DNA from: an uncultured Veillonellaceae bacterium
GTDB lineage: Bacteria > Bacillota > Negativicutes > JARBTT01
Direction of reading: 5' to 3'
DNA length: 64,000 nucleotides
NCBI GenBank assembly: GCA_963805085.1
Contig: CAWDTA010000001.1
Location: 226,805-290,804, forward strand
The notes under the pieces: model-generated
Database searches by the model: none
What the model was told of the DNA's origin: nothing
What the model saw: the letters and a program-made list of their open reading frames with translations, nothing else
In this document: in pieces, positions 28,239 to 63,755 of the stretch
How the letters are laid out: every line of letters begins with the position of its first letter
How positions within the stretch are numbered: position 1 is the stretch's first letter
Made by a program: the position numbers and the translations under genes

Positions 28239-28364
28239 GCCGAGCATAAATAGAGGAAAAAAATAATTCTAGCTAGTCAATATAACTCTGATTGGCTTTC
28301 TTCAGAATTTGTATTTATTTTGTCGAAACTTTATGATAAAACAGACACATTAAGGAGCTTTGCT

Positions 28365-29651
28365 ATGGAAAATCAAGGGAAAAATAAAACTACAACTACT
28401 AAAAAGCAGGTAAAAGGTAGTTCACGCAAAACTTCAAGTAAACGGCCGTGGGCAGTGCTTGGTATCGCAATGCTGCTGGTTGGTACTTATTTTTATTTTA
28501 TTAATTATGAGAATAAAGATAAAGAGAGAGCAATGGAGCAAATCCAGAATTATACGATAGAAAAAACAGGCGCTGGCACAAATGCTAATTTTACAGAAAA
28601 AACAAAGCAAATCCATACTGTTGTTGATAAAGTATTGCAAGATAAGAATGTGACGGTGCTTGATACAACGCAAGCCAGTAAGACGGTCAAACGACAGAAA
28701 ATAGAAGGAAACATTTCCTGGAATGCACGGCAAATGCCAGTTTCGATTGCAAATGGTGCTGTAGACGAATTGAGAGCTGCTCTTGATAAAGCGTTAAATA
28801 AAATTGGTGCAAAGATTATAAACACAGAACCAGATCAATATAATGGAAATGCAGTCATGCGATTGGATATTGGTATTGAAGATGAACTTGATGGAGATCA
28901 AGTCACAATTATCGCCGATAAATTGTATGTAATGCAGAAAAAAACTTCGTTGACAGATAAATCTCCTCCTCCAGCAAGCAAAGGTGGAAGTAAGGCAAAA
29001 TTAGCGCTTGTGATTGATGATTTTGGCTATACAGAAGAGCCAATCAATGCGTATGAAGGTATTGATCGGCCATTGACTTTTGCGATATTACCCAATCACC
29101 CCTACAGTAAAGAAGCCGCAAATCGTGGCTATAAAAGTGGTCGCCAGATTATTTTGCATTTACCAATGGAAGCAATGAGCAGTGCGGCAAAGGTAGAAGT
29201 ACAAACGATTAATGTGAATATGAGTGATGCTGAAATAAGAGCAATGGTCAATGAATTAACAGAAGCAGTGCCGCATATTATTGGTGTGAATAATCATCAA
29301 GGTTCAAAAGCAACTTCAAATCAACAGGTTATGAAAGTTGTTTTAAATGAACTTGCAGGTAAGGGATTATTTTTTATCGACAGCAAAACAATTGCGAGCT
29401 CAATTGCTTATGATACCGCAAGGGCAGTTGGTGTTAAAACTGGAGAAAATAAAATTTTTCTTGATAATAGTAGTGATGTAGATGAAATAAAAAAACAATT
29501 GCGGCAAGCGGGAAATATTGCTTTGAAAAATGGCAGCGCAATTGCAATAGGCCATGCACGTTTAAATACGGCAAAAGCAATCAAGGAACTTATTCCTGAA
29601 TTAGAAGCACAAGGGATAGATTTTGTATTTGCCTCGGAACTGCTAAAATAA
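28365..29651 (+). CDS. Divergent polysaccharide deacetylase family protein (YibQ-like) with an N-terminal membrane anchor
   Basis: ATG 28365 follows AAGGAG; the ORF track starts at TTG 28320. It has a Lys-rich N-terminus and one TM helix. The C-terminal half (LALVIDDFGY, FAILPNHPYS, NNHQGSKAT) is typical of the YibQ family. Confidence 0.75.
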   Translation: MENQGKNKTTTTKKQVKGSSRKTSSKRPWAVLGIAMLLVGTYFYFINYENKDKERAMEQIQNYTIEKTGAGTNANFTEKTKQIHTVVDKVLQDKNVTVLDTTQASKTVKRQKIEGNISWNARQMPVSIANGAVDELRAALDKALNKIGAKIINTEPDQYNGNAVMRLDIGIEDELDGDQVTIIADKLYVMQKKTSLTDKSPPPASKGGSKAKLALVIDDFGYTEEPINAYEGIDRPLTFAILPNHPYSKEAANRGYKSGRQIILHLPMEAMSSAAKVEVQTINVNMSDAEIRAMVNELTEAVPHIIGVNNHQGSKATSNQQVMKVVLNELAGKGLFFIDSKTIASSIAYDTARAVGVKTGENKIFLDNSSDVDEIKKQLRQAGNIALKNGSAIAIGHARLNTAKAIKELIPELEAQGIDFVFASELLK

Positions 29652-29658
29652 AAATATA

Positions 29659-29687
29659 TTGACAAATATCCAATAAAATAATACTAT
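29659..29687 (+). promoter_or_regulatory. Sigma-A-type promoter of the riboswitch-pel transcription unit
   Basis: TTGACA (29659-29664), 17 nt spacer, TACTAT (29682-29687). Confidence 0.6.
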
Positions 29688-29717
29688 AAGCTCGTATACT
29701 GTTTGAATTGGTAAAAT

Positions 29718-29805
29718 TTTATTGGCAAACTTGTTGAAAAGTAAGGGCGCAAAGCTATGGGTCTAACGGTTTATATAATGAACTTACGACTGCCAGGTTA
29801 CAGAC
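29718..29805 (+). promoter_or_regulatory. c-di-GMP-I (GEMM-I) riboswitch aptamer
   Basis: The sequence is GGCAAAC-UUGUU-GAAA-AGUAAG-GGCGCAAAGCUAUGGGUCU...ACGACUGCCAGGUUAC. The hallmark blocks GGCAAAC, a GNRA-capped 6-bp hairpin, CGCAAAGC, GGGUCU and GAC-nn-GCC-GGUUAC occur in the order and spacing I recall for clostridial and Vibrio GEMM-I RNAs. One deviation is GGGCGC instead of GGACGC. Confidence 0.75.
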
Positions 29806-29836
29806 ATCAACTGTCTAACCTAGCAGTCTTTTTTAT
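29790..29836 (+). terminator. Intrinsic terminator forming the riboswitch expression platform
   Basis: CTGCCAGGTTACAG (29790-29803) pairs with CTGT-CT-AACCTAGCAG (29811-29826). That gives 13 bp with one mismatch and a 2-nt bulge, followed by TCTTTTTTATTATT. The 5' arm is shared with the 3' strand of the aptamer. Confidence 0.75.
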
Positions 29837-30006
29837 TATTAGGGAACAAGTCGATTTTTAAGGTGAGACACGATGGAATAAGACGTTGTGAAAAAATATT
29901 GGGTGGCTTTTATAGGAAAAATTTGGAATAGTTATTCATAAACAGTACAGTAAATAAGATCCCAAAATTATTCTTTAGATTTCTTGATAAAAGATAGGGG
30001 GATAAT

Positions 30007-32208
30007 ATGCGTATATTGATTACAGGTGGATATGGGTTTATAGGGTCTCATGTTGCAGAACGTTTTTCTAAAGAAGGGCATCAAGTTGTGGTGGTGGATG
30101 CTCTTTTGGCGGGGTCCAAAGAAAATCTGACAGTAAAGCATACCTTTTATCAGTTGAATATTGCTGATAAAAAATGTGAAGAGGTATTTAGGGTCAACAA
30201 TTTTGATGTGGTTGTTCATCTTGCAGCACAAGTAGATGTCAACACTTCAGAGAATAATCCATGTTTGGATATTGAATCTAATATTCTTGGCCTTGTTAAT
30301 ATGCTAGATTTAGCAAGTAAATATCATGTCAAAAAATTTATTTTTGCATCGTCTGCAGCAGTATATGGTAATGCGGAAACAATGCCTATTACAGAACGAG
30401 CTCCATTAAAGCCAATATCCGTTTATGGGATCAATAAAGTAAATGGAGAAGAGTATTGCCTGAAATGGAAAGAGATATATGGGTTAAATACGGCTATCGT
30501 ACGTTTTTCCAATGTTTACGGTCCTCGCCAAAGTGTAAAAGGAGAAGGTGCAGTCATTCCTGCCTTTATTACAAAGGTACTAAAAAGTGAGAAAATCACG
30601 ATTTATGGTAGTGGCAAACAAATAAGAGATTATGTTTATGTAGAAGATATTGTAGATGCTTTATATCGTCTTGCGATGTACAACAAAGAAGTTGAGATTA
30701 TGAACGTATCCACGAATACAGAATGTAACTTAGATGAGCTAGTGAATATGTTATCAACCTACGGAAAAATAAAAGAAATTGAATATAAAGAAAAGCGGCA
30801 AGGAGATATTGACAAATCTAAGTTAGATAATTCTCAATGCATAAAAGAATTGGGGTGGTCACCCAAATATACTTTGCAAGAAGGTTTAGGAAAAACTTAT
30901 CAATGGTATAAGAATGAACTAGCTAGCCAATCAGTACAAGGGACTGAAGAAAATATGACAGTAAAATTTTTGTATCATAAATTTGCAGTGGCTAGACCTT
31001 ATATAGAAAATTTACTAATGTTTTGTATTATGCTAGCGTTGACCTTAACGAATACTTATGGGTCGATCATAAATACAAGTATAGGTTTGGATTATAATTA
31101 TATCTATATTGTTGCTATGGGACTTTTATATGGTAAAAAACAATCCATACCAGCGACTATTCTTTCCTCAGCATTGCTTATGTATAGTTTCTTATTACAA
31201 GGTGCTGATTTCGTAGCGATTGCTTATCAATCACAACATATTGTTCATTTTGCTACTTATTTATTTATTGGTGTTGTGACTGGTTACGTTACAGATAGTA
31301 GAGAAAGAGTTGCTTCAGATCAAAATATTGTCTTGAAAAATACAAAAGAGCGCTATCAATTTCTTGAAACAATGTATTTAGAGAATGTGACAATTAAAGA
31401 TAAACTTTATAAGCAAATTGTAAATTCTAATGATAGCTTAGGAAAGACGTATCAGATTATTCATAAACTAGATAGCATTGAGGTAGAAAAAATATTTACA
31501 GCCTCCAATGAAGTTGTAGCGGAAATTATGCACACTGATTCTGTTGCGATTTATATTGTTGGTAAAAATGGTTATTATTTAAGACAAAAAACGAGAACGA
31601 GTGAAAAACTAGATCATTTGCCGAGGTCTTTAAAAATTGAAAGCTTTGATTACTTAAAAAAGATGATGAAAGATAAAAAGGTTTTTACGAATAAACGTTT
31701 AAACAAAGATTGTCCTCATATGGCAGCCCCCGTTATCTTTAATAATGATGTAATCGCGGTGTTGCAAATTTATCAGTTACCATTTGAAAGTTTAAATCTT
31801 TATCATGAGAATTTGCTGAAGATTACGGCGATGCTTATTTCGGAAGCTTTAGGAAAAGCATATTTACATGAGCAAAGCGTGCAAGATAAAAAATATATTG
31901 GAGGAACTCGGATTCTTATTGCTGAGGAGTTTGAAAAAATTCAATTAGAAATGGCACTTCGGCAAAAAAATAGTAACCAATTATCAGTTGCATTGATTAA
32001 AATTTTAACGGAATCGAAAGATTATAACCAAATCTATAAAGAGATCACAGGAGTTATTAGAGATGAAGACTTTATAGGGGTAAAAAAAGATGGTTATGTT
32101 TATGTTATGCTGCTTGATATCAGTGCTGATATGGTTTTTGAAGTACAAAAAAGGATTAAAAAAGTTGGCTTAGACACAGTTGATATGATAGGTGATACCC
32201 ATGACTGA
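30007..32208 (+). CDS. pelD: Fusion protein: NAD-dependent sugar epimerase (PelX/GalE-like SDR) + 4-TM + GAF + degenerate GGDEF c-di-GMP receptor (PelD-like)
   Basis: 733 aa with SD AGGGGG. Residues 1 to about 310 form an extended SDR (ILITGGYGFIGSH, YGINK). Hydrophobic helices cover about 325-430. The C-terminus carries R685-D-E-D688 followed by FIGVKKDGYVYVML, an RxxD I-site five residues ahead of a degenerate GGDEF position as in PelD. Confidence 0.8.
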   Translation: MRILITGGYGFIGSHVAERFSKEGHQVVVVDALLAGSKENLTVKHTFYQLNIADKKCEEVFRVNNFDVVVHLAAQVDVNTSENNPCLDIESNILGLVNMLDLASKYHVKKFIFASSAAVYGNAETMPITERAPLKPISVYGINKVNGEEYCLKWKEIYGLNTAIVRFSNVYGPRQSVKGEGAVIPAFITKVLKSEKITIYGSGKQIRDYVYVEDIVDALYRLAMYNKEVEIMNVSTNTECNLDELVNMLSTYGKIKEIEYKEKRQGDIDKSKLDNSQCIKELGWSPKYTLQEGLGKTYQWYKNELASQSVQGTEENMTVKFLYHKFAVARPYIENLLMFCIMLALTLTNTYGSIINTSIGLDYNYIYIVAMGLLYGKKQSIPATILSSALLMYSFLLQGADFVAIAYQSQHIVHFATYLFIGVVTGYVTDSRERVASDQNIVLKNTKERYQFLETMYLENVTIKDKLYKQIVNSNDSLGKTYQIIHKLDSIEVEKIFTASNEVVAEIMHTDSVAIYIVGKNGYYLRQKTRTSEKLDHLPRSLKIESFDYLKKMMKDKKVFTNKRLNKDCPHMAAPVIFNNDVIAVLQIYQLPFESLNLYHENLLKITAMLISEALGKAYLHEQSVQDKKYIGGTRILIAEEFEKIQLEMALRQKNSNQLSVALIKILTESKDYNQIYKEITGVIRDEDFIGVKKDGYVYVMLLDISADMVFEVQKRIKKVGLDTVDMIGDTHD

Positions 32209-33100
32209 TGAAGTGATTTTAATTTTAATCTTGGCAAATGGTATTTTATCACTCTTATATTTTATTTGGGCTGCAAAAAAGAGTAAATCTCAGGCGATTA
32301 GTGAAGTTGCGATGATGCTTTTGATTCCTTTTTTTGGTCCTGGTTTTATTCTTATTATTAAATTGGCAGAAGTGTTTAAATTGAAACAAGAAGATCCATC
32401 CTACATGTACCAAGAATTTAAAAATAAACACTTGATTTTGGGTGATTTTATGCAGCATGAAGCAAATATTATTCCAATTAATGACGCATTGTTTATTGAT
32501 GATACAAATACAAAGCGTACTTTACTTACCGATGCAATCAAGCAAAATGTTTTGCAAAATAATAATATTTTGCTGAAAGTAGTTCGAGATTCCGATAGGG
32601 AAGTATCTCATTATGCTGTTTCGATGGTTACAAATATCATTGGAAATTTGGAAGTAATTCTATTTCAACTTGAAAAGAAGTTACTAGAAGATCCTAAAAA
32701 TATAGAGTGTTTAATGAAATATGCTGATGCAATGTCCGAATATTTACAAATTGGTTTTCTTGATCCAATTTCGCAAAAGAAAAGTGAAGAAATTTATATT
32801 AATATTCTTGAAAACATAATATCTTTAAAAGTTACTGATAAACGGTATTTCATTGAAAAAATCAATTATGAAATCAAACAAGAAAACTATAAAAAAGCAG
32901 AGTTTGATTGCAGGAATTTCATGGATATATTTCCTAATGATGAAGATCCATATCTTATGTATATAAAATTATATGGTCAGTTGAACGAATATCAAAAAAT
33001 GCAAGAAAAATTACAAGAATTAAAAGCTTGCCCGATTAAATTTACTAGGAATGCTCTGGAAATTATTCGGTTTTGGGGGGGAGAAGAGGAATATGTATAA
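32201..33100 (+). CDS. pelE: PelE-like membrane protein with helical-repeat (TPR-like) domain
   Basis: ATG 32201 follows AGGTGA and overlaps the upstream stop. It has two N-terminal TM helices and then a helical, TPR-like soluble part. The call rests mainly on architecture and its position between the PelD-like and PelA-like genes. Confidence 0.55.
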   Translation: MTDEVILILILANGILSLLYFIWAAKKSKSQAISEVAMMLLIPFFGPGFILIIKLAEVFKLKQEDPSYMYQEFKNKHLILGDFMQHEANIIPINDALFIDDTNTKRTLLTDAIKQNVLQNNNILLKVVRDSDREVSHYAVSMVTNIIGNLEVILFQLEKKLLEDPKNIECLMKYADAMSEYLQIGFLDPISQKKSEEIYINILENIISLKVTDKRYFIEKINYEIKQENYKKAEFDCRNFMDIFPNDEDPYLMYIKLYGQLNEYQKMQEKLQELKACPIKFTRNALEIIRFWGGEEEYV

Positions 33101-34919
33101 AAAAAATATTGCAATTGTTCTTTCTCTCGTTTTTCTTTTGGGCTTGTTTTTCCAATACAACCGCAGTGATGGTTTTATTCGTTTGATCAAAAACAAAAAT
33201 GTTTCCGCAATTAGCGGAGACTTCAGTCTTGGTAAAGAAGAGCAAAAAAATATACCAAGGGAGCGGATGCTTCTCGTCTATGACCCAAGTAGTGTGCATA
33301 GTCTTTTCTTACGTCATAATATTGAGCATTTAGCTAAATACTTGAAGAAAGAGATTGTAGCAGTACCAGCTAAAGAAGCACTTAGTGAAAATTTGGATTA
33401 TGATGGTATTATTATAGCACTGGAAAATTTAGACGATTTCAATGATATGGAAAAAGTGAATCAATATGCTAGTCAAGGTGGTAATGTATATTTTATGATT
33501 CGCCCGATACCAGGTGTTAAAATAAATGAAGTTTATCATGACTTGGGGATCAGTCGTATGGGGGATATTGTTAATACTAAAGGAATTAAAATGAATACCA
33601 ATTTACTCATCGGAGCAAAAGGTTTTGAGTTAAATAACGATATCTATACGACTTCTGCGATAAAATGTGAACTTACCAATGAAGCTAATATTCATATGAG
33701 CTCCCAAGAAGGAATTCCTCTTCTGTGGGAAACAAGCATAGGAAAAGGCAAATATATCGTCTATAATGGCTCAGGGTTAGGCGATAAGATGAATCGTGGA
33801 TTAATGACAGCAATGATAGGTTTAGGCAAATCGGTGTATCTTTATCCAGTTGCAGCAATTAAGTTATCCTTTATTGATGATTTCCCCGCACCTATCCCAG
33901 AGGGGTATTACGATAAAATTTATGATGAATTTAAATTATCTACACCGCAATTTTATCGTCAGGTTTGGTGGCCCTATATGTTGTCTTTAGCAGAAAAATA
34001 TGATATTAAGTATACGGGATTGATTATTGAAACCTATAATGATGCTATAGTTCCTCCTTTCAATCCTGATATAGAGACTCCTGACAAGAATAATCTTATT
34101 ATTTATGGTAGAGAACTTTTGAAAAGTGGTGGAGAACTTGGTATTCATGGGTATAATCATCAATCATTAGCACCAGAAGGCTATAATCAAAAAGCTTTAG
34201 GATATAAACCCTGGCAGAGTCAAAAAGATATGATACTGTCATTGACAGAGTTGAAAAGATATGTAGAAAACGTATATCCAGATTATAAAATAAAGGCATA
34301 TGTACCACCGTCTAATATTTTAAGTCCAGAGGGTAAGCAAGCGCTTATACAGGTGTTTCCTGATTTGAAAATGATTTGCTCCCTCTATACTGGACAGGCT
34401 GAAGAAAGAGAAGCTTATATTCAAGATTTTGAAAAAAGCCCAGATGGTATTTTAGAATTGCCACGTGTTTCTTCTGGGTATATGCGCAATGATCAGTTTG
34501 ATTGGGAAACTATCAATGTTATCAATTTCATAGGGGTATTTTCTCACTTTGTTCATCCAGACCAAATCTTTTATGAAGAGAGTCAAGGCTTAACTTGGCG
34601 TGAAATGAGCGAAGACTTTGAATCATTGATGAAAGAAATACAAGAAAACTATGGATGGCTTAGGAGCTCTACTGCCTCTCAAGGCGCAGAGTATCTTGAA
34701 GAATACTTTAATGTAGATTATCGGATTGTCGAAAAACCCGATGAAATGACAATATATTGTTGGGGTTATAAAAAAGAATCATATTTTATTATGAAAACGA
34801 CAAAAAAAATTATAAGATATGAAGGCTGTCAAGTGGAACATATTGATGATAATGCATATTTAGTGAAAATTTCCCAGCCGGAAGTTAAGCTGAAGTTTGA
34901 AAGTGAGGGTAAGCCGTGA
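33093..34919 (+). CDS. pelA: DUF2194-type polysaccharide deacetylase (PelA deacetylase-domain homologue, PelA_DA-like)
   Basis: ATG 33093 follows GGGGGGAGAAGAGGAA and overlaps the pelE stop by 8 nt. It has an N-terminal signal/anchor (IAIVLSLVFLLGLFF). CE4-like motifs are SFIDDFPAP and LGIHGYNHQS. Confidence 0.7.
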   Translation: MYKKNIAIVLSLVFLLGLFFQYNRSDGFIRLIKNKNVSAISGDFSLGKEEQKNIPRERMLLVYDPSSVHSLFLRHNIEHLAKYLKKEIVAVPAKEALSENLDYDGIIIALENLDDFNDMEKVNQYASQGGNVYFMIRPIPGVKINEVYHDLGISRMGDIVNTKGIKMNTNLLIGAKGFELNNDIYTTSAIKCELTNEANIHMSSQEGIPLLWETSIGKGKYIVYNGSGLGDKMNRGLMTAMIGLGKSVYLYPVAAIKLSFIDDFPAPIPEGYYDKIYDEFKLSTPQFYRQVWWPYMLSLAEKYDIKYTGLIIETYNDAIVPPFNPDIETPDKNNLIIYGRELLKSGGELGIHGYNHQSLAPEGYNQKALGYKPWQSQKDMILSLTELKRYVENVYPDYKIKAYVPPSNILSPEGKQALIQVFPDLKMICSLYTGQAEEREAYIQDFEKSPDGILELPRVSSGYMRNDQFDWETINVINFIGVFSHFVHPDQIFYEESQGLTWREMSEDFESLMKEIQENYGWLRSSTASQGAEYLEEYFNVDYRIVEKPDEMTIYCWGYKKESYFIMKTTKKIIRYEGCQVEHIDDNAYLVKISQPEVKLKFESEGKP

Positions 34920-36343
34920 AAATTTGTATGCTGGTAGAAGGAAGTTACCCTTATATTGTCGGTGGTGTGTCATCCTGGGTACAAATGCTAATTTCAGGCA
35001 TGCCAGAACATCAGTTTATTATCTATTCCATCGCTGCTGAGGAAAAAAATAAAGGAAAGTTTAAATATAAATTACCTGCAAATGTAATTGAGGTGCGTGA
35101 AGTTTTTTTAGATAGCATTTTAAATTTAAAATGTCCATCTGCAGGTAACTATAAATTAAGCCCAAAAGAAAGAGGAAACTTAGAAAGACTAATTTGTGGC
35201 GAAAGCGATATTGATTTAGAAACCTTGTTAATGACATTTCGCTCAAATAAAAAAAATCGCGATATTTTGGAAATTTTCATGAGTTTTGATTTTTTTGATG
35301 TTATTACAAGTGCATATAAGAAAAAATTTAGTTATTTACCATTTACGGACTTTTTTTGGACGATTCGTTCGATGTTATTGCCACTTTTTTTTATTCTTCA
35401 GCAAGATTTGCCTGATGCTGATGTTTATCATAGCGTTGCCGCTGGATATTGTGGTGCTGTTGGTGGTCTAGCGGCTACTATCTATAAAAAACCATTTATA
35501 TTAACGGAACATGGTATCTATTCTAGGGAAAGAGAAGAAGAAATTATTAAGTGTGATTGGGCAAAGGGCGATTTTAAATCTGTGTGGATAAATTATTTTT
35601 ACAGTTTAGCTAGGCTTACCTATCAAAAATCTACCAGTGTTATTTCTTTATTTGAAAAAAATGCAGAAATTCAAATTTCTTTAGGGTGTGATTCGCAAAA
35701 AGTACAAATCATACCAAATGGAATTCATGTAGATCAATTTGAAAATATCAAGCAGCCTATTGAAGAGAAGGAAACAATCACAATTGCTGCTATAGTCAGG
35801 GTTGTCCCAGTGAAAGATATTATTACAATGATTAGAAGCTTTTTCCTTGTGAAAGAAAAAATGCCGAATACACGGTTTCTCATTATTGGTCCATGTGATG
35901 AAGATGCAGAGTATTATGAAGAATGCTTAAAACTTATTAAAACTTTAGCTATAAAAGACATTGAATTTACTGGATCGGTAGATGTAAAGCAATATATTGG
36001 TGACGTCGATATTCTAGTTTTGTCGAGTATTAGTGAAGGGCAGCCACTCGCAGTTTTAGAAGGTATGGCCAGTAGAAGGCCATTCGTAACGACTGATGTT
36101 GGTTGTTGTCGTGAATTGTTGTATGGTAGCAATGACAATTTTGGAGAAGCTGGGATTGTTGTTCCGATGATGGATTTTGAGGGGATGTCCGAAGCCATTA
36201 TTGCACTAGCAAAGGATAAAAAGCTTAGGTTCGAGATGGGAGAAAATGGGCATCGGCGAGCTTGTGAATTTTATACGATTAAGGGGTTTATTGATGATTA
36301 TAGGCGAGCATACTGTGAGGTTACTGAGGGAGTGAGTGAATAA
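34916..36343 (+). CDS. pelF: Pel polysaccharide glycosyltransferase (GT4)
   Basis: GTG start overlaps the upstream stop by 4 nt. The N-terminus MKICMLVEGSYPYIVGGVSSWVQMLI closely resembles the PelF N-terminal (DUF3492) signature. The GT4 E-x7-E region is EGQPLAVLEGMASRRPFVTTDVG. Confidence 0.9.
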   Translation: MKICMLVEGSYPYIVGGVSSWVQMLISGMPEHQFIIYSIAAEEKNKGKFKYKLPANVIEVREVFLDSILNLKCPSAGNYKLSPKERGNLERLICGESDIDLETLLMTFRSNKKNRDILEIFMSFDFFDVITSAYKKKFSYLPFTDFFWTIRSMLLPLFFILQQDLPDADVYHSVAAGYCGAVGGLAATIYKKPFILTEHGIYSREREEEIIKCDWAKGDFKSVWINYFYSLARLTYQKSTSVISLFEKNAEIQISLGCDSQKVQIIPNGIHVDQFENIKQPIEEKETITIAAIVRVVPVKDIITMIRSFFLVKEKMPNTRFLIIGPCDEDAEYYEECLKLIKTLAIKDIEFTGSVDVKQYIGDVDILVLSSISEGQPLAVLEGMASRRPFVTTDVGCCRELLYGSNDNFGEAGIVVPMMDFEGMSEAIIALAKDKKLRFEMGENGHRRACEFYTIKGFIDDYRRAYCEVTEGVSE

Positions 36344-36345
36344 GA

Positions 36346-37779
36346 ATGGCTGGAATTGGGTTTGAGTTAAAAAAACTTTTTAATAAAAAAAGCGCGATTG
36401 GTTATTTTAAAGCGTATACATATACGTCTATTGTCACAACAGGGCCGTTTGTTTTAATGACAGGTATGGTTTTGTCGATCCAATTGTTATTTCATCTGTT
36501 CAATATTTCATATTTTGATACACAAATTTATGTTGCTTCAATTATCTATCCATTTATTTTTTCACATATCATTGCGAGTGGGTTTGCTATGCTGATTACT
36601 AGATTTGTAGCAGATCAACTGTACAGTAATGAGTATGATGAAATTATTCCGTCCTTGTATGGTATGCTTTCCTTAGCATTGGGGATAGGTGCTATTTTAG
36701 CATTAGCTTTTTTCTGGAATAAGCCTTTGACGATCGAACTGAAGTTAGCGACTTATATCTTTTACATGGAAATGATTGTGATATGGATTCAAGGGGTATA
36801 TTTGAGTGCATTAAAAGATTATAAAAAAATAATACAATCTTATGCAGGCGGAGCTTTTATTGCAGTTTTTTTAGCTTTTATCATCTTGAAATCAGGAGTA
36901 TTTTCGCCAGCATTTGGTACAATGTTGTCGATGAATATTGGTGTGTTTTTCATTGCTAGTATGTTAATGCTTAATATCAAAAAATTTTTTGGCAAGAGCA
37001 GTTACAAAAATTTTTCATTTTTAGCTTACTTTGAAAGCCACTTTAGTTTATTTTTAATAAACTTATTGTATTCTATTAGCTTATATATTCCTAACATTAT
37101 GATTTGGTACGGCCCGTTGGGCATAAACATTGCGGGAACTTATATTTATGCTCCAGAATATGATATTGCAACTTTCTATGCATTTTTATCTATATTACCG
37201 GTTATGATTATGTTTGTTGTTTCTACAGAAATCCATTTTTACCAGAAGTATTCTACTTATTTTATGTATATTACAGAAAAAGGAAACTTCAAAGAAATAG
37301 AAGACGCAAGGCAAGATTTGTTGCATATTATGTGGTCAGAAATTCGTAATATTGTTGAATTTCAACTTGTTTTCACGCTGATTTTTTTATCGTTAGGTAA
37401 TTATTTTTTGCCAAAAACTGGATTGGTTCATGCGTCAGTTAATATGTATAATTTAATTGTGTTAGGTGCTTATGCTACAGGTCTAATGCAAGTGATTATC
37501 ACGTTGCTTCTTTACTTTGAAGATCGAAAAGGTGTTTTGTATCTTTGTAGCCTATTTTTAATTACTAATATTATTTTTAATTTAGGGAGTATGGTGGTTG
37601 GAGAAAATACCTATGGTTTTGGTTTTTTCCTTTCAGCTTTTTTAAGTTTGGTCATGGCAATTTGCCGCTTAATCTATTTTAGTAATAGACTTGATTATTT
37701 TATTTTTTGCTCTCGTCCTGTTTTTTGTAATCATAAAGCCGGAATTTTAACAAAACTTGTGAATCGAATTTATAGTTGA
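36346..37779 (+). CDS. pelG: Pel polysaccharide export inner-membrane protein
   Basis: 477 aa and polytopic (about 12 TM). The N-terminus MAGIGFELKKLF is the characteristic PelG start (MAGIGFELRK in Pseudomonas). Confidence 0.9.
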   Translation: MAGIGFELKKLFNKKSAIGYFKAYTYTSIVTTGPFVLMTGMVLSIQLLFHLFNISYFDTQIYVASIIYPFIFSHIIASGFAMLITRFVADQLYSNEYDEIIPSLYGMLSLALGIGAILALAFFWNKPLTIELKLATYIFYMEMIVIWIQGVYLSALKDYKKIIQSYAGGAFIAVFLAFIILKSGVFSPAFGTMLSMNIGVFFIASMLMLNIKKFFGKSSYKNFSFLAYFESHFSLFLINLLYSISLYIPNIMIWYGPLGINIAGTYIYAPEYDIATFYAFLSILPVMIMFVVSTEIHFYQKYSTYFMYITEKGNFKEIEDARQDLLHIMWSEIRNIVEFQLVFTLIFLSLGNYFLPKTGLVHASVNMYNLIVLGAYATGLMQVIITLLLYFEDRKGVLYLCSLFLITNIIFNLGSMVVGENTYGFGFFLSAFLSLVMAICRLIYFSNRLDYFIFCSRPVFCNHKAGILTKLVNRIYS

Positions 37780-37857
37780 AGAAAAGAATGACAAAGTGAA
37801 TAATGTGAATAATTTTCCAGCTTTTAAGGACGATTTTTTATTAGGGAGGCAGCTTTT

Positions 37858-39801
37858 TTGAAAAAAAAGAAGAAAAGTAAAAATTTCTATAAAATATTTG
37901 CAGTTTATGTCTGTAGTTTTTGTATTTTGCAGAGTAATGTAGAAGCGACAAATGCTGTTTCTGTTGTGGATGAAGCGAAAAATACGGCAATTTTTATGCG
38001 TGAGTCAGCAAAAAATATTGCTGAGCACCGTAAAGCCGTTGCAGATGAAAAGCAAGCCGAAGTTGTTGCTGCTGATACTGCAAAGGATGTAGCACAGTTA
38101 GAAGCGGATAAAACTGTTACGGAAAAAACATTAGCCGATGCTATTGAAGTATTAAAGAAAAACGAGGAGAATGCTAAGTTGGCTGTTTTAGAGGCTAACG
38201 AAAAAGATCGTCTAGCAAAACAGGCAATGGCTGATGAAAAGGTAGCATTAGAGGAAAAAGCATTAGCTGAGCAAGCCGTAGACGAGGCAAAAGCTGAAGA
38301 AGATAGGATAACTTATCGAGAAAATGCAGCAGTTCGGGCGGCAGAAGCACAAGCGGCCGTAGCGAGTGAAGCTGGTGCCACAGAGGCTGTTAAAGCAGTT
38401 GGATACGATGAAACTAGAATTGATGAGGCTGAGCAAAAGGTGCAGGCTATTACTGATAGAGCGTATGCTGTCGCTGAAGCGAGAAGTTTAGCTGCTGAAG
38501 CTAGAGTGAATGAGGCAGCCAGTGCGGTCGAAGTGGCTGAGAAAAGGTTAGAAGAAGCCGAAGAAAGAATAGGCTTTGCAGCAGATGCTCGTTTGGATGC
38601 CGACGAGGCCGAAAAATCTGCTCAAGAGGCAAAAAAAGATTTGTTGGAAGCAAAGTCAGATGTAGAAGAGCTTCGTACTAGCCTTGTTGAAGCGAAAAAA
38701 GAGTTAACACTTGCGCAAGCCGAACTTGTTGATGCACAATTGGTATTAGAAAATGCAAAAAAAGATTTGCAACCAGTCACGAATAGCCGTACTATGCAAC
38801 TAGAAGCTAAATATTATTCTTGGAAGGATAACCAAGGCCATAGTGGACATCAGTTTTATCAGCCTTATGATTTTAATGTGGTTGATAAAAATACTGAATA
38901 CGGATTACATACTGGTTACGTAGTGTCAAATAATAATTCAAATAGCAATGGAAATATTTCAACTTTGACAGATACGGTTGTTAATATTACTAAAACAAAT
39001 CCAAAAGAAAAGTATGCAGTTCATTATACTTTAGATGTTAATTTGCCAACAGGAAAGTCTAAGCTTAATGGTTCTGGACAAATAATGTCAGATGATTTGG
39101 TAGAAAATGCTCGTTTCGGCGAAGGATTGAATTATACACCTGGTATTAGTGTCAGTCACAAAATTGGCGAAGAGGATACTTGGACTTTGGGCACTTCCTA
39201 TGCTTTTCGCGGTAGTTATGAATATGATAGTACGATGCCTGGATCAAAGTTTGATCCGGGGACAGAATGGGCAAAAAGTCTTAATTGGCTACATGCAGGA
39301 CAAAAATGGCAATTGCTCGGGGAGTTATCCCATACGAATTACGGAATGTCAGAAGAAAACGGAATTCAGTATAGGGAAGGAAATCAATTTGATGCAAAAT
39401 TATTTTATAACTTTGTTTTAAATGCTAAACAAGATTTAATGGTTTATTATTGGTATTCGCTTGGTCGCCCTACTACGTACCCTATACCAGGTGATTATGA
39501 TGTAGAGAGTGATTTAACTCGTCACTATTTTGGTGCAGAATGGGCGAAAAAAATATCAACTACGCGAACTTTTCATGTGATGGCAAATGTAATGCACAGT
39601 ACAGGTAGCACTTATGACCCGATTGCCGCTTTATATGTAAATGATCGGACTAAATATAGTGGTGGTATTGGCTATGATGTTGCATTGTCACCTAACCAAA
39701 CGATGTCCCTTGCGGTTGAAAGTTTCTATATGAAAGATCATTCGCCAGATAATAGTTATCATGGTTGCAATTTATATTTAAGATATTCAGCAAATTTCTA
39801 A
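37858..39801 (+). CDS. Secreted protein with about 270-aa Ala/Glu/Lys coiled-coil region and about 335-aa beta-rich C-terminal domain ending in Phe; candidate outer-membrane Pel export component
   Basis: TTG start 8 nt after GGGAGG. The signal peptide is MKKKKKSKNFYKIFAVYVCSFCILQSNVEA/TN. Residues about 36-305 are heptad-like and helical. Residues about 312-647 are rich in Tyr/Gly/Asn/Ser with alternating hydrophobic residues. The C-terminus is YLRYSANF, an OMP-like terminal aromatic. Confidence 0.6.
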   Translation: MKKKKKSKNFYKIFAVYVCSFCILQSNVEATNAVSVVDEAKNTAIFMRESAKNIAEHRKAVADEKQAEVVAADTAKDVAQLEADKTVTEKTLADAIEVLKKNEENAKLAVLEANEKDRLAKQAMADEKVALEEKALAEQAVDEAKAEEDRITYRENAAVRAAEAQAAVASEAGATEAVKAVGYDETRIDEAEQKVQAITDRAYAVAEARSLAAEARVNEAASAVEVAEKRLEEAEERIGFAADARLDADEAEKSAQEAKKDLLEAKSDVEELRTSLVEAKKELTLAQAELVDAQLVLENAKKDLQPVTNSRTMQLEAKYYSWKDNQGHSGHQFYQPYDFNVVDKNTEYGLHTGYVVSNNNSNSNGNISTLTDTVVNITKTNPKEKYAVHYTLDVNLPTGKSKLNGSGQIMSDDLVENARFGEGLNYTPGISVSHKIGEEDTWTLGTSYAFRGSYEYDSTMPGSKFDPGTEWAKSLNWLHAGQKWQLLGELSHTNYGMSEENGIQYREGNQFDAKLFYNFVLNAKQDLMVYYWYSLGRPTTYPIPGDYDVESDLTRHYFGAEWAKKISTTRTFHVMANVMHSTGSTYDPIAALYVNDRTKYSGGIGYDVALSPNQTMSLAVESFYMKDHSPDNSYHGCNLYLRYSANF

Positions 39802-39836
39802 ATGGCAGAATATCTAAGCGTGAATGATAGAAAGGG

Positions 39837-40922
39837 GTGGTATGCAAAGTGCCAAAAGCTGTTCTACGATATATGTTAATCGTTTTAAGTTTCATAGCGT
39901 TTAGTTTGACTTTAGAGTTGACGTCGGCTACGAACACCCAAGATACAATGCTCACTTATTTACCGAAGCTGTATACCAGTCAAAGTGACACAAAAAAAGT
40001 TGAGGCTATGCAAAATATGGACTATAAAGAAAAGATGATTTCATTGATTGAGAAAATTAGCAAGTATTCAAAATCTAAAAATCAGTCTTTTCAGCTGATT
40101 GGTAATAATGGATTAGAGTTATTTCGAACCGAGGAAGTTGGTATGCAAAACGTAAATCGTATTCTTAGTAGTGTCGATGGAATTCTTTTAGAAGGTTTTT
40201 ATTATGGCTGGGAAATGGAAGATGATAAAAGAACGTCAGCAGCAGTCCGAGCAATACTTAATCGAGGCTTAGAAATACCGGTAAGCAAGAACTTGCCAGT
40301 ACTGAATATTGATTATTGTGATAGTATTCGAAAGGTTGAAAAATCTTACCAATTGAATGATGGTAGTAATTTTATTGACTTTGCGGCAAGTAATCGTGAA
40401 CTGGATACGATTCCAACTGATCCACCTCAGATTTATAACGAGAACGACAATACGATTCGTGAGTTGAAGCAAGTAAAAAATTTTATTGCCTTACTTAATC
40501 CACAAAAATTTAAAACCAAGAAAAGTTATTTGGAAAGCTTAAAAAATACAAACTATGATTTACTGATTATTGATATGTATTTTGATGGAGAGCGTCTATT
40601 GCCGAGCGATGTGGAATCGCTCAAAGTGAAGAAAAATGGAGCGACTAGACTGGTATTTTCTTATATGAGTGTTGGTGAAATAGAAAATTATCGTCCGTAT
40701 TGGAAGAGTGAATGGTCAAAGAATCCACCTAAATGGATTGCTGAGATAAATCCAGACTGGGATGGTAATTTTAAAGTCAAATATTGGAATAAAGAGTGGG
40801 AAAATATTCTATTTGGTTTTCCTGATTCTTATTTAGATCTTATCTTGGCATCAAAATTTGATGGGGCATTTATGGATGTGATTGATGCCTTTGAGTATTT
40901 TGAGAGTAAAGATAATGAATAA
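39837..40922 (+). CDS. GH114-like endo-alpha-1,4-(N-acetyl)galactosaminidase (PelA hydrolase-domain homologue), secreted
   Basis: Start is GTG 39837 or GTG 39849, after AAAGGGG. It has a signal peptide (LIVLSFIAFSLTLELTSA). Motifs LLIIDMYFDG, YMSVGEIENYRPYW, KVKYWNKEW and FDGAFMDVIDAFEYF are typical of the GH114/TM1410-like TIM-barrel family. Confidence 0.75.
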   Translation: MVCKVPKAVLRYMLIVLSFIAFSLTLELTSATNTQDTMLTYLPKLYTSQSDTKKVEAMQNMDYKEKMISLIEKISKYSKSKNQSFQLIGNNGLELFRTEEVGMQNVNRILSSVDGILLEGFYYGWEMEDDKRTSAAVRAILNRGLEIPVSKNLPVLNIDYCDSIRKVEKSYQLNDGSNFIDFAASNRELDTIPTDPPQIYNENDNTIRELKQVKNFIALLNPQKFKTKKSYLESLKNTNYDLLIIDMYFDGERLLPSDVESLKVKKNGATRLVFSYMSVGEIENYRPYWKSEWSKNPPKWIAEINPDWDGNFKVKYWNKEWENILFGFPDSYLDLILASKFDGAFMDVIDAFEYFESKDNE

Positions 40923-40988: not shown

Positions 40989-42983
40989 TTAAACTTTAAA
41001 TTTATTTACTGCTTCTGCTAATTCCTGTGCTAAGTTAGAAAGTTCATTGCTCGAGGCGGAAATTTCTTGCATAGTAGCGGATTGTTCTTCTGTAGTCGCA
41101 GAAATGCTTTGTGTTTGTTCAGAGCTTTGTTTGCTCATATGATCAATTTCATTAACTGCAGTAACGATTTTTACGCGTTCATTCTCAATATCTTCAACTT
41201 TATTCGAGATTTGATTGATTTTCTCTGTAGTAGCAGCAATTACTTGAGCGATCTCTTGAAAGGCTAGGCCAGCATCATTAACCACTTTTGTGCCAATTTC
41301 AGCTTGGTCAGTTTCTTCCTTCATACCCGATATTACAGTTTCAGTTTCGTGCTGAATGTCATTGATCAATAAAGTTATTTCATGCGCGGCCTCTTGTGAT
41401 TGCTCGGCTAATTTGCGGACTTCTTCAGCGACAACCGAGAAACCACGTCCTTGCTCGCCAGCTCTAGCCGCTTCAATAGCAGCATTTAAGGCAAGTAGAT
41501 TGGTTTGAGCAGCAATATTAGAAATGGTATCAATAATTTGGCCAATCTGTGTGGATTTTTCACCCAGTTGATTTGCTCGTTTTGTAGATTCGATGACTGA
41601 TGATTGAATATTGCCCATTTGGTCAATGGCTTTTTCAATCGATACATTACCAGTGGCAATTGTTTTTGTTGCTGTTGTCGTTTGTTCGGATACTGTTTGT
41701 ACATTTTCAGTTACAGAATGGATATGTTCCGAGATGTTATTCACTAGATGATGCGTATTTTCAACCTGTAACATTTGTGATTCAGCATTGGTGGCAACAA
41801 GAGATATTGCTTCAGCTGAAGTTGCGGCACCTTGCGACACTTCTTCACTGCTTGAAGTAAGTTCTTCGCTGGCGGCACTTACTTTTTCGGCACTGACTTG
41901 AATTTTTTTCGTTAGGGTTCTTAATTGGTTCACCATATTATTATAAGAATGGCCTAATGCACCAATCTCATCTTCTGCATAAACTGTAATGGTTTGCGTT
42001 AAATCACCGTCAGCAACTAATTTTGTCTTTTCTGCCAGAACTCTCATTGGTTGCGTTAATATTTTGGTTAAAACAAAGGCAATGATAACAACAAAAAATG
42101 TAGTTGCTAAACAAGTAAATAGTGAAAAAATAAGTTGTTTGCGAGAATTTGAGATTGAATCGCTTTTACTCGTTTCAGCGACTACCGACCAGTGGGATTG
42201 ATTAATTGGGGCATAACCGGCAATGGTATCTACACCGTCTGGCGTAGTATAATCAACAGCACCAGAATTGGTTAACATAGCGTTAGCTACCGGTTCTAAT
42301 TTATCGACACTGGTGATATTTTTTACCAACTCTTCATTAGGATGAACCAGTAAAGTTCCTTTAGAATCAGCTAAGAAGGCATAGCCTAATTGATTCTTTT
42401 TTGCATTTGTCATTATATTTTTAAGAATACTTAAATCCATAGTCGCAGAAATAGAACCGATTACTTTATCTTGTGAATTTTTAATGGGAACAGAAAGCAC
42501 AAAGATCGCTTTGTTATCGGCTTTAGAATAGATCAAATCACTTACGGATACTTGAGCAGAACCATTTAATATGGGTTTTATGTATGAACGATCGCTCCCG
42601 TTTTGATTATTACCAGCGTTGCGGGCGATTTGCTGTCCAGTGGTATCACAGATAAACATATCGCTAATATCTGGAAAGCTTGTCTTGAAAGATTGTAATA
42701 AAGGAATTAAATCCTGCGGATTCATTGCCTGAACCGTGGGTAGTTTTGTCATTGATCTAAGTAGATTAACTCTGCTTAATAGCATGTCATCGATTTCCTT
42801 AGCGGTATTGATAGCGGTATTTTGATTTAGCGTATGCGCAGTTTCTGTTTCAGCATTATAAGAGATTATACTATTAAAAATAGTAACAATGAATAGTGGG
42901 ATGAGTGCGATTGTCGCAAACCCAAAGGTAAGCTTGGTTTTTAGTTTCGTTGTTCGATCGAGAGTTTTTAAAAATGTGAACAT
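40989..42983 (-). CDS. Methyl-accepting chemotaxis protein with periplasmic double-Cache-type sensor
   Basis: 664 aa with two TM helices flanking a sensor of about 260 aa, then HAMP. The highly conserved signalling hairpin is [35 protein letters not shown]. Confidence 0.9.
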
Positions 42984-61554: not shown

Positions 61555-63663
61555 TTATATTTTGAATCTAAAGATTGCGGATTGTAGCTCTTCTGATATT
61601 TTCGCTAAGGCTTGACTTGAAACAGCGATTTCCTGCATCGCTGCAGTCTGTTCCTTAGTTGCTGCAGATATAGTCTGGGTTTGTTTTGCTGTTATTTTGG
61701 TTTCTTTATCAATTTTCTGTACAGCATCTACCACGTGTTGACTTCCAGTTGTTATATCCTGAGTAGAAGTAGCTATTTCGTGTATTTGATTTGATATTTC
61801 TCTAATCATCTTGAGGATTTCACGAAAATTTTGGCCAGCTATATTTACAATTTCCGTACCTGCAATTACTTCATTTCGACCTTCATTCATAAAAGTGACT
61901 GCAGTATTGGTTTTTTTTTGAACTTCATCAATAAGCATAGCGATTTGTTTTGCAGAAATTTCTGATTGTTCTGCCAACTTTCGAACTTCATCAGCAACCA
62001 CAGAGAATCCTTTGCCAAAATCTCCTGCTCTTGCCGCTTCAATAGCCGCGTTTAATGCCAAAAGGTTTGTCTGTCCAGCGATAGCAGATATAGTTTCCAC
62101 TATTTGCCCAATTTGTGTTGATTTCTCATCTAATTCGTGAATTACATTTGCAATAGCTGCTGTTTTCTGCTCAATTATAACCATTTGATTCATTGCTTGT
62201 ACGACTGTTTGCTCACCATTGGTTGCTGCGGCTTCTGTTTTTTTCGTTGAATCTGTTGCTGTCATCGTGTTGTCGGAAACTTGATGCATTGTCTTCGATA
62301 TTTGTGCAATGATGTCTGTTGCAGATTCTACTAAATTAAGCTGCTTTTCTGCGCCCTGTGCTACCTCTGTAATGGAATCAGCCACTTGATTGGCTGATTG
62401 TGCAGAGTGTTCGGCACTGGCGTTCATCTCTTCAGAAGTGCTCGACATATGGTCAACAGTTTCACGTAAATTAGCAACTAGAGATCGCAAAGATTCGGTC
62501 ATATTGTTAAAAACAAGTCCAATGGTTTTTAACTCATCTGTAGTACCGATTTCAACCTGAGTATTTAATCTGCCATCGGCTACTAATGCAGCTACATCTT
62601 TAAAATTACTGATCACTTGTTTTATTGATAGGTGAAAAGCCTGTAAAAGATATATTACAAAAAGCAAAACTAGTAAAGATATAGCACTAACGATATTTCG
62701 CAAGAGTTCATTTTTTGTAATACGGTCTTCCAACATTTTATCAAGCGTTAAGATTCCTGTATCGTAAAATTTGTAGTTAGCTTCAATTCCTGCAGTAACA
62801 GCATTAAAATATTCAGTTGGTTTTATGGTAATCTCTTTAGCATTTATAATATTAGTATTCAATAAATCTAATACATTTTGAGTCAGTACAGTAGATTCTT
62901 GGCTATTTGCATTCAGAATATTTTTTAATTCGTTATTTTGTTGATAAACAAAACTGATTTTTTTACTCATATCTTGTAAAGATGCACTGAGGTTTTTTGA
63001 TAAAACAACTAACTCAATTTTTTCATCTACGGTAAGTGCTTTTTTTGCTGCTATGCCAGCACCTTTAGCTCTAACTTGTCCTAAAGATTCAATTTCGTTG
63101 AGAAGCTTATCCCCGATTGCAGTAATTAGAAAGTTAGTATCAGGTTTCGGGTCAAGAGACAAATTTGATTCTGTTGAAACCTGTTTGGTCAGATCAATTA
63201 ATTCAGCTATGAGTGCGGTATGACGAGTAAAACTATTCTTTGAACTTAGTGTAAATAAATCATTTTTTAAAGCGAGCCATTTTTTTGTTGCTGCATGCCA
63301 AGGTTCAGCTACTTTTAATGTAGGATTGGATTTTTGGTCCATTGCTTCAATTGCTTGAATATCTTTATTAATTTGATCTTCTTTAGCTAAAAGTTTTTCT
63401 TTAAATAATGGGTCTCCGTTTAAAAATGCACTAGACATGCCACGATGTTGTTGCGTATCATCAATCAATTGTTTCACTGCACTATTGTATTCAAGTCCGA
63501 TTCGTTCTCGCTGGGCGAAATCAATCTGGTGATTGATTTCGCCTACTAATAAATATAGAGTAATTGCCAGTGGCACCAAGCAAAATAACCCGACTAATAA
63601 AAATTTTTGCGAAAATTGTAGACGGTTCATCAATGAAACAGCAGGGTTAAACAATCGTCTCAT
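61555..63663 (-). CDS. Methyl-accepting chemotaxis protein with NIT-like (nitrate/nitrite-sensing type) periplasmic domain
   Basis: ATG at 63663 follows GGAGGT; the ORF track starts at 63678. The sensor contains [22 protein letters not shown], resembling the NIT-domain Q-x-E/H-R-G signature. HAMP and the conserved signalling hairpin [35 protein letters not shown] follow. Confidence 0.85.
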
Positions 63664-63755
63664 ACTATATACCTCCATGATAAAATATATATGAACTCTT
63701 TAGTAAAAGCTTAAAACGGTAACATTCAAATTTTTAGCATCAATTTTTATAACAT

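Follow-up and report, generated by a model that had tools for sequence, protein, structure and literature searches.

It is by now well appreciated that a single second messenger can govern Pel at two levels, and the best-described example is Pseudomonas aeruginosa, where the pel promoter is both derepressed and activated by FleQ, while the synthase is turned on by PelD (PMC12564702; PMC8461298). The locus that we describe here, which lies in a 64-kb stretch of DNA analysed at its full length (the window), resembles this system in that one messenger is predicted to act both on operon expression and on the RxxD I-site of a PelD protein. It differs in that its transcriptional tier would be an RNA working in cis, where P. 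aeruginosa has FleQ, an enhancer-binding protein working in trans, and in that its PelD is fused to an SDR epimerase. Because the sensor is a cis-acting RNA, sensor and operon would move together as one cassette. The second obvious reference point is the pelDEA(DA)FG arrangement that Whitfield et al. 2020 reported in Gram-positive bacteria (PMC7112168), exemplified by the locus of Bacillus cereus ATCC 10987 with CdgF and CdgE, in which the RxxD motif of PelD is required for function (PMC7112168). The core gene order, an accessory GH114 gene and the PelD RxxD motif are common to this locus and ours, but no riboswitch is described for the B. cereus locus in that paper (PMC7112168) and the B. cereus PelD is without an SDR domain, whereas the operon in the window adds a beta-barrel gene and resides in a diderm host.

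On the RNA side, the nearest relative in terms of logic is Bc2 of Bacillus thuringiensis, a c-di-GMP-I ON riboswitch that precedes cap, a gene for a collagen adhesin (PMC11218506). Bc2 and the element in the window have in common their aptamer class, a Firmicute host and a transcriptional ON logic that serves biofilm formation or adhesion at high c-di-GMP, but Bc2 controls a single adhesin, whereas the window holds a seven-gene Pel operon that would encode its own c-di-GMP receptor, in a diderm Negativicute. The Vc2 and Vc1 riboswitches of Vibrio cholerae share with the window the G20, A47 and C92 positions, the C44-G83 pair, the GAAA tetraloop and the two-hairpin architecture; they differ in having other expression platforms and other genes (tfoY and gbpA), while the window element is essentially without a P1 helix outside the Rfam model and places aptamer and terminator in direct competition. 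Triple tandem c-di-GMP riboswitches are also on record as Bc3-Bc5 (Zhou et al. 2016, as cited in PMC11218506). Tandem units recur in one relative of our locus (L052), whereas the window carries a single unit. Finally, a c-di-GMP-II riboswitch reportedly lies upstream of pilA1 in Clostridioides difficile (Bordeleau et al. 2015), and is said to be an ON switch for a multi-gene surface-structure operon that promotes aggregation at high c-di-GMP; in that sense it is like ours, but it is reportedly built on a class II aptamer and serves type IV pili, rather than class I and Pel. Aptamers of this class, ON switching by way of a terminator and c-di-GMP control of Pel at two levels are all established already. 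Transcriptional control of pel by a riboswitch appears to be undescribed: our literature search, which lay outside most subscription journals, returned general reviews only, none of which reports a pel locus under such control.

We think it likely that a transcriptional c-di-GMP ON riboswitch gates a complete Pel operon in this Sporomusaceae-like Negativicute, with PelD as a second tier of control. Our computations showed the identity of the aptamer, a terminator, a mutually exclusive pairing of the two that is conserved, the content of the operon, a PelD-like fold in its first product and a conserved RxxD motif. The leader is composed as follows.

29659-29687, + strand: promoter-like site, TTGACA-17 nt-TACTAT, with 10/12 consensus matches
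29714-29805, + strand: c-di-GMP-I riboswitch aptamer (RF01051, 70.2 bits, E 9.9e-12)
29730-29745, + strand: GAAA-capped aptamer hairpin, by alignment to the Rfam consensus
29753-29799, + strand: P3, the second aptamer hairpin, by alignment to the Rfam consensus
29788-29828, + strand: intrinsic terminator hairpin (-20.5 kcal/mol, z = -6.64)
29829-29834, + strand: U6 tract finishing the terminator, read from the sequence
29835-30006, + strand: 172-nt spacer before pelD, with a ribosome-binding site AGGGGGA at 29996-30002

Judged by its sequence, the element at 29714-29805 is an ordinary member of the c-di-GMP-I class, and ligand binding is to be expected of it. The match to RF01051 is full-length (model positions 1-87) and its score is to be set against a gathering score of 35. 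A model of our own (R1), built from pel-linked aptamers, gives it 86.6 bits. At the Rfam gathering level, nothing else was found across the whole 64-kb window, and a search of the window with both Rfam and our own covariance model for a second riboswitch found none. In the Vc2 reference G20, A47 and C92 touch the ligand, and an interhelical C-G pair is universally conserved (PMC4744006; PMC11218506); in the Rfam alignment their equivalents in the window are G29724, A29751 and C29801, with C29748-G29792 in the place of the C44-G83 pair. Among the pel-linked aptamers the columns of A47, C92, C44 and G83 are invariant, and that of G20 is G everywhere except in L065, which has A. The GAAA loop lies at 29736-29739, and its receptor region is a partial match to the consensus (CUAAC and UACG vs CUAAg and uAuG). 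In an alignment of seven pel-linked aptamers, which had been fitted to the model, 98.7% of the cells are canonically paired and compensatory changes occur in 9 of the 22 pairs, a degree of pairing reached by none of 500 shuffles, with slid controls at 49% or below. The first-pass annotation had named a c-di-GMP-I riboswitch at this site, and the covariance-model check, with the ligand-contact nucleotides intact, bears it out.

Directly after this aptamer comes a terminator that is partly made of it. The terminator folds as GACUGC.AGGUU..AGACA-loop-UGUCUAACCU.GCAGUC, then UUUUUU, an interrupted hairpin of 16 bp with arms at 29788-29806 and 29812-29828, whose stability was matched by none of 200 dinucleotide shuffles and which is also present in the minimum free energy structure of the whole leader. 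With a bulge and an internal loop interrupting its stem, it escaped a simple terminator scanner, while thermodynamic folding detected it. The 3' strand of aptamer P3 (GAC UG CCAGGUU, 29788-29799) sits inside the terminator 5' arm, and the terminator re-uses 9 of the 14 paired nucleotides of this strand, as the earlier reading of the aptamer 3' strand as a terminator arm had it; both G29792 and C29801 also fall within the 5' arm. The features and the U-run announced in that reading are all there, with positions that need to be shifted by 1-3 nt: the strand ACGACUGCCAGGUUAC was correctly recognised but placed at 29787-29802 instead of 29786-29801, and the two terminator arms were real but had been given as 29790-29803 and 29811-29826. 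When the aptamer strand is removed, the remaining 29802-29836 folds at just -3.8 kcal/mol (z = -1.0), like shuffled sequence, and the small hairpin left there is not adjacent to the U-tract. The ligand-bound aptamer and the terminator need one and the same strand and are therefore mutually exclusive, which is the logic of an ON switch, and no separate anti-terminator element lies between the two. In nearest-neighbour energies the terminator state comes to -23.5 kcal/mol vs -8.3 kcal/mol for the secondary structure of the ligand-free aptamer; since the terminator state is favoured when ligand is missing, termination would be the default and c-di-GMP should turn transcription on. We would thus expect c-di-GMP-dependent ON switching through aptamer-terminator competition, with read-through as its predicted outcome.

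What would be read through into is a series of seven co-directional open reading frames, tightly packed or overlapping, which span 30007-40922.

30007-32208, + strand: SDR epimerase::PelD fusion, 733 aa (Pfam Epimerase 1.2e-62; PelD by fold)
32192-33100, + strand: PelE-like protein, 302 aa (position and synteny with PMC7112168; TPR_19, E 0.019)
33051-34919, + strand: PelA deacetylase-type protein, DUF2194 (PF09960, E 8e-148)
34916-36343, + strand: PelF glycosyltransferase (NCBIfam NF038011, 367 bits against a cut-off of 100; DUF3492 and GT1)
36346-37779, + strand: PelG (PF16933, E 5e-129)
37858-39801, + strand: 647-aa secreted protein with no family match (AF2 model with a coiled coil and a C-terminal beta-barrel)
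39837-40922, + strand: GH114 glycoside hydrolase, PelA-hydrolase-like, last gene of the operon (PF03537, 5e-13; TIGR01370, 2.4e-42)

The genes for pelD, pelE, pelA(DA), pelF and pelG are contiguous and in the order of the Gram-positive type, and a search for a strong internal terminator within 30007-40922 found none. The pel operon that had been proposed downstream of the riboswitch is thereby substantiated by the PelF, PelG and DUF2194 matches and by the fold of PelD. The second product is best called PelE-like: it bears membrane helices at its N terminus and a weak TPR match, and the assignment draws on this match and on its position between pelD and pelA-DA.

The sixth gene deserves a word of its own. 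Its 647-aa product (37858-39801) has a signal peptide, an Ala/Glu-rich coiled coil of some 270 residues and a C-terminal beta-rich domain that ends in YLRYSANF, and it has 12 detectable homologs among 5.8 billion proteins, one of which follows pelG in another pel locus (L125). The AF2 model (pLDDT 84) combines a long helical hairpin with a beta-barrel, and its best PDB matches in Foldseek are three entries of BcsC (E 1.5e-12 to 2e-11), followed by the PelBC exopolysaccharide transporter 9h80 (E 1.6e-10), with generic porins ranking lower. BcsC is the outer-membrane channel for cellulose, and we know of no PelB or PelC in diderm Firmicutes. On the strength of the modelled fold, it is plausible that this protein is a candidate outer-membrane Pel exporter in a diderm Firmicute that is without PelB and PelC and, if true, a barrel of the BcsC/PelB kind on a coiled-coil stalk, encoded in the same operon, could explain how Pel is exported across the outer membrane in diderm Firmicutes.

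The first product of the operon bears on the second tier. It opens with 300 residues of SDR epimerase, in which both GxxGxxG and Y140xxxK144 are intact; after these come a transmembrane region, GAF and a GGDEF domain that is degenerate, since the GGDEF position reads KKDGY. That some PelD proteins bear N-terminal SDR domains has been described before (PMC7112168). The AF2 model of the PelD-like half has a pLDDT of 81, and the top six PDB entries found with it by Foldseek are all P. aeruginosa PelD (4etz, 4dn0, 4etx, 4eu0, 4dmz and 4euv), at E 2e-8 to 2e-7 and over PelD 156-455, with about 280 aligned columns that cover GAF and degenerate GGDEF; the global TM-scores of this fold match are low (0.29/0.39). 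The I-site residues are R367/D370/R402 in P. aeruginosa PelD (PMC7112168; PMC8461298) and R363/D366/R395 in the B. cereus protein, where they are necessary for c-di-GMP binding and biofilm formation (PMC7112168), and by comparison of motif and spacing the latter set is matched in the fusion by R685/D688 (the RxxD motif, nt 32059-32070) and R716 (nt 32152-32154).

It is conceivable, if rather unlikely in our estimation, that the control is single-tiered, so that the ON switch works but the PelD-like domain no longer binds c-di-GMP and serves as a scaffold only. The GGDEF-like domain is short, at about 100 aa, and is recognised neither by Pfam nor by sequence and profile searches of the PDB, in which phmmer and a 15-sequence HMM profile of the PelD-like half brought up no PelD but a weak similarity to a KdpD transmembrane domain; furthermore, streptococcal PelD proteins have lost the c-di-GMP-binding domain entirely (PMC7112168). 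What is hard to explain for a domain that has lost its function is the pattern of conservation, because across 28 homologs that are 38-63% identical overall R685, D688 and G691 never vary and R716 is kept in at least 90%, and the best fold matches are PelD structures with c-di-GMP complexes among them. Predicted fold, motif conservation and synteny together support a PelD-type I-site in the first product, and the RxxD that had been read from the sequence in the first-pass annotation holds up, R685 and D688 being invariant and the modelled fold being PelD-like; c-di-GMP binding by this domain is a prediction from the model and these residues. We therefore return to two tiers as our preferred reading, and the wording in which two-tier control was first put forward for this locus is fair, although as a concept it is already known for Pel in P. 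aeruginosa (PMC12564702; PMC8461298).

Turning from the operon to its surroundings, the window has a G+C content of 36.9% and its neighbouring genes are housekeeping genes, including pcrA and ligA; the LigA protein has its best match in Anaerosinus massiliensis (82% identity), with Propionispora and Pelosinus next (Negativicutes, Sporomusaceae). The gene immediately upstream of the leader (28320-29651) is deacetylase-like. The promoter-like site is located some 25-35 nt upstream of the aptamer core, is a match to consensus only, and is the sole one on the + strand between the stop codon of the upstream gene (29651) and pelD; in particular, no promoter-like site that could serve as a bypass was found between the terminator and the pelD start codon (30007). 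Open reading frames with a GGDEF motif were sought throughout the 64-kb window and none was found, which in so small a window says little, and therefore the synthesis of c-di-GMP in the host is assumed here and not seen.

How general is the linkage of riboswitch and pel? About 125 loci with relatives of the SDR-PelD fusion were gathered from genomes, metagenomes and assemblies and screened against Rfam and against our own covariance model of pel-linked aptamers; the locus-search patterns were biased to Negativicutes, and the genome and metagenome scans accordingly gave mostly Selenomonad-type loci without riboswitches and missed the genome to which the window belongs. Those that do carry one are the following.

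L056 (PelD 59% identical): single riboswitch about 200 nt before pelD
L067 (PelD 53% identical): single riboswitch about 160 nt before pelD
L052 (the same as the L066 contig; 60% identical): two complete riboswitch-terminator units, nearly identical and one after the other, ahead of GH114-pelD
L053: truncated copy of the L052-type leader
L007 (41% identical): one riboswitch before a signal-peptide protein, presumed to be GH114-like, then pelD
L065, from Clostridium tyrobutyricum: one riboswitch, which lies on the other strand and is directed at a divergent GH114 gene, not at pelD

The locus of the closest PelD homolog (L051, 63% identity) has no riboswitch, and none was found in nine further loci (L057, L059, L125, L001, L003, L005, L006, L068 and L070), in about 90 loci of the Selenomonas, Dialister and Anaerovibrio type with enough upstream sequence, or in the sampled loci of Clostridium aestuarii, Anaeromicrobium, Brevibacillus and Paenibacillus. 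A match of our own model in L125 (24.5 bits) was unconfirmed by Rfam at E <= 1 and is at most a decayed relic. The linkage is patchy, not general.

Where a riboswitch does point towards pel, the aptamer and the terminator overlap without exception, that is in six of six pel-directed riboswitches from five loci (the window, L056, L067, L007 and the two units L052a and L052b). In these six units the hairpin before the U-run uses 6-11 of the 13-14 paired nucleotides of the P3 3' strand, while distal stem and loop sequences vary between loci, and in the five leaders scored the terminator state lies 4-25 kcal/mol below the secondary structure of the ligand-free aptamer (L007, with a projected P3 tip of a 2-nt loop, was left out of the scoring). 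That the overlap persists despite varied distal stems is good evidence, on comparative grounds, that selection maintains the ON design. The proposal of an ON switch, which the earlier annotation had already made, thus has computational support from the shared strand, from the feeble folding of what remains once this strand is taken away, and from the recurrence of the design in every pel-directed unit.

The same comparison bears on a rather different explanation, namely that the hairpin and U-tract mainly terminate the upstream deacetylase-like gene, or that the riboswitch acts through RNA stability or Rho, with pel mostly following another signal. The terminator scan found no separate terminator between 29651 and the riboswitch, as one would expect if the hairpin served the upstream gene, and the Vc2 riboswitch is reported to act on RNA stability (bioRxiv 10.1101/617340). 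We nevertheless regard this explanation as very improbable: the overlap is kept behind unrelated upstream genes (one for a DJ-1/PfpI protein on the opposite strand in L056, GatB in L052), the promoter-like site stands directly upstream of the aptamer, and any transcript coming in from the upstream gene would have to pass the same riboswitch. Not all members of the class are ON switches, Cd1 of C. difficile being a c-di-GMP-I OFF switch. Although Vc2 too is reported as OFF (bioRxiv 10.1101/617340), and GEMM-I variants with A at position 20, which the pel-locus relative L065 has, can bind cGAMP (PMC6140456), an OFF switch in the window, or one for another ligand such as 3'3'-cGAMP as in GEMM-Ib variants, is the least credible possibility of all, given that positions G20 and C92 are occupied by G and C in the window and that its terminator consumes the aptamer strand directly with no anti-terminator in between, a topology that reads as ON.

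Our preferred reading, a c-di-GMP ON switch with PelD as a second tier, would work as follows. The transcript probably begins shortly after the promoter-like site (29659-29687). As long as c-di-GMP is low, the P3 3' strand (29788-29799) would pair with 29812-29828 and not with its own 5' strand, so that a hairpin of -20 kcal/mol and the U6 tract form and RNA polymerase terminates at about 29834. Bound c-di-GMP would instead lock P3 and the ligand pocket (G29724, A29751 and C29801, along with the interhelical C29748-G29792 pair), and the ligand-locked aptamer would withhold the 5' arm of the terminator, leaving a 3' remainder that should form no useful hairpin beside the U-tract. RNA polymerase is then expected to read through, in the cell, into the SDR-epimerase::pelD fusion, pelE, pelA-DA, pelF, pelG, the beta-barrel gene and the GH114 gene. 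Once made, the PelD moiety must most likely bind c-di-GMP in its turn, at the RxxD I-site, before the PelDEFG synthase becomes active. Since the switch needs c-di-GMP and PelD most likely does too, one messenger would license both the synthesis of the machine and its activity, a coherent feed-forward arrangement with AND-like character, and we infer that the RNA and protein tiers respond at differing thresholds.

A bolder version of this idea, which we offer tentatively and hold to be somewhat less probable than even, is that diderm Firmicutes possess a self-contained Pel cassette with the riboswitch as its master gate, one that may unite precursor supply by the SDR domain, fused to the PelD sensor, with the synthase, the deacetylase, a so far unrecognised outer-membrane exporter made of a coiled coil and a beta-barrel, and the hydrolase, all on one c-di-GMP-gated transcript. 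With different thresholds or kinetics in its two sensors, such a cassette could act as an AND gate that filters out brief pulses of c-di-GMP, and relatives might tune it by duplication of the riboswitch (L052) or by its placement at the hydrolase gene only (L065).

None of this overturns current understanding. What we describe is, as far as computation goes, a canonical c-di-GMP-I ON riboswitch in a new and coherent gene context. To our knowledge, Pel regulation is almost unknown outside Pseudomonas and Bacillus cereus, and c-di-GMP signalling has hardly been studied in Negativicutes. The presence of RF01051 beside pelF and pelG would offer an easy way to mark Pel loci under c-di-GMP control in the genomes of uncultured Firmicutes. 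Moreover, an RNA sensor and a protein sensor of one messenger within one transcription unit would make a compact, movable and testable feed-forward module, which lets one ask how receptors of different affinity shape the dose-response of matrix production.

We think that the sixth gene of the pel operon is a candidate for the outer-membrane Pel exporter of diderm Firmicutes.

Window 37858-39801, + strand: 647-aa protein with signal peptide, coiled coil and beta-barrel, sixth pel gene.

Searches of this protein against Pfam and NCBIfam gave no match, and only 12 homologs are detectable, one of which sits after pelG in L125, a comparison locus encoding an SDR-PelD relative. Behind the signal peptide runs a long Ala/Glu-rich coiled coil and then a C-terminal beta-barrel that is terminated by an aromatic residue, and the best matches of its AF2 model (pLDDT 84) are the outer-membrane exopolysaccharide channels BcsC and PelBC.

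Three riboswitches or riboswitch-like elements at comparison loci encoding relatives of the PelD fusion are listed here.

L052 1031-1347, the same as L066 1053-1369 (one contig): two c-di-GMP-I riboswitch-terminator units in tandem.
L065 2189-2272, - strand: c-di-GMP-I riboswitch at the pel locus of Clostridium tyrobutyricum.
L125 9875-9964, + strand: weak match to the pel-aptamer covariance model (24.5 bits), within the GH114-pelD spacer.

The tandem units, both complete, near-identical and about 207 nt apart, lie upstream of a GH114-pelD operon and should make its response steeper and more digital than that from the single unit in the window. The C. tyrobutyricum riboswitch is directed at a divergent GH114 hydrolase gene, not at pelD, and its platform is unlike the others: a AUCCUCUU segment can pair alternatively with an upstream AAGAGGAU or with the identical AAGAGGAU ribosome-binding site, which suggests translational control. 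The G20 ligand-contact position is an A in this aptamer (UAGCAAA), and its ligand preference is possibly altered. The L125 element, which retains a P2-like CUUAUUGAAAGAUAAAG hairpin and found no match in Rfam, may be the relic of a decayed riboswitch.

The region 29860-29882, between the window's riboswitch terminator and pelD, contains a mini-ORF of two codons, AUG GAA UAA (29874-29882), with a Shine-Dalgarno-like AAGGUGAG upstream; it is probably a chance occurrence. The region is flanked by two chemotaxis genes, one of them convergent with the end of the pel operon, and the C. tyrobutyricum pel locus (L065) likewise adjoins such a gene.

Window 40989-42983, - strand: methyl-accepting chemotaxis protein gene.
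Window 61555-63678, - strand: methyl-accepting chemotaxis protein gene.

Window 30007-30930, + strand: SDR domain at the N terminus of the PelD fusion, motifs intact.

The GxxGxxG and Ser motifs and Y140xxxK144 are all kept, and the YxxxK tyrosine is kept in most of 28 aligned homologs (exceptions include P0025 and P0026). Whitfield et al. (PMC7112168) put forward SDR activity for Brevibacillus only. The domain probably works as a UDP-sugar 4-epimerase, and its physical fusion to a predicted c-di-GMP receptor would tie the supply of precursor to the synthase.
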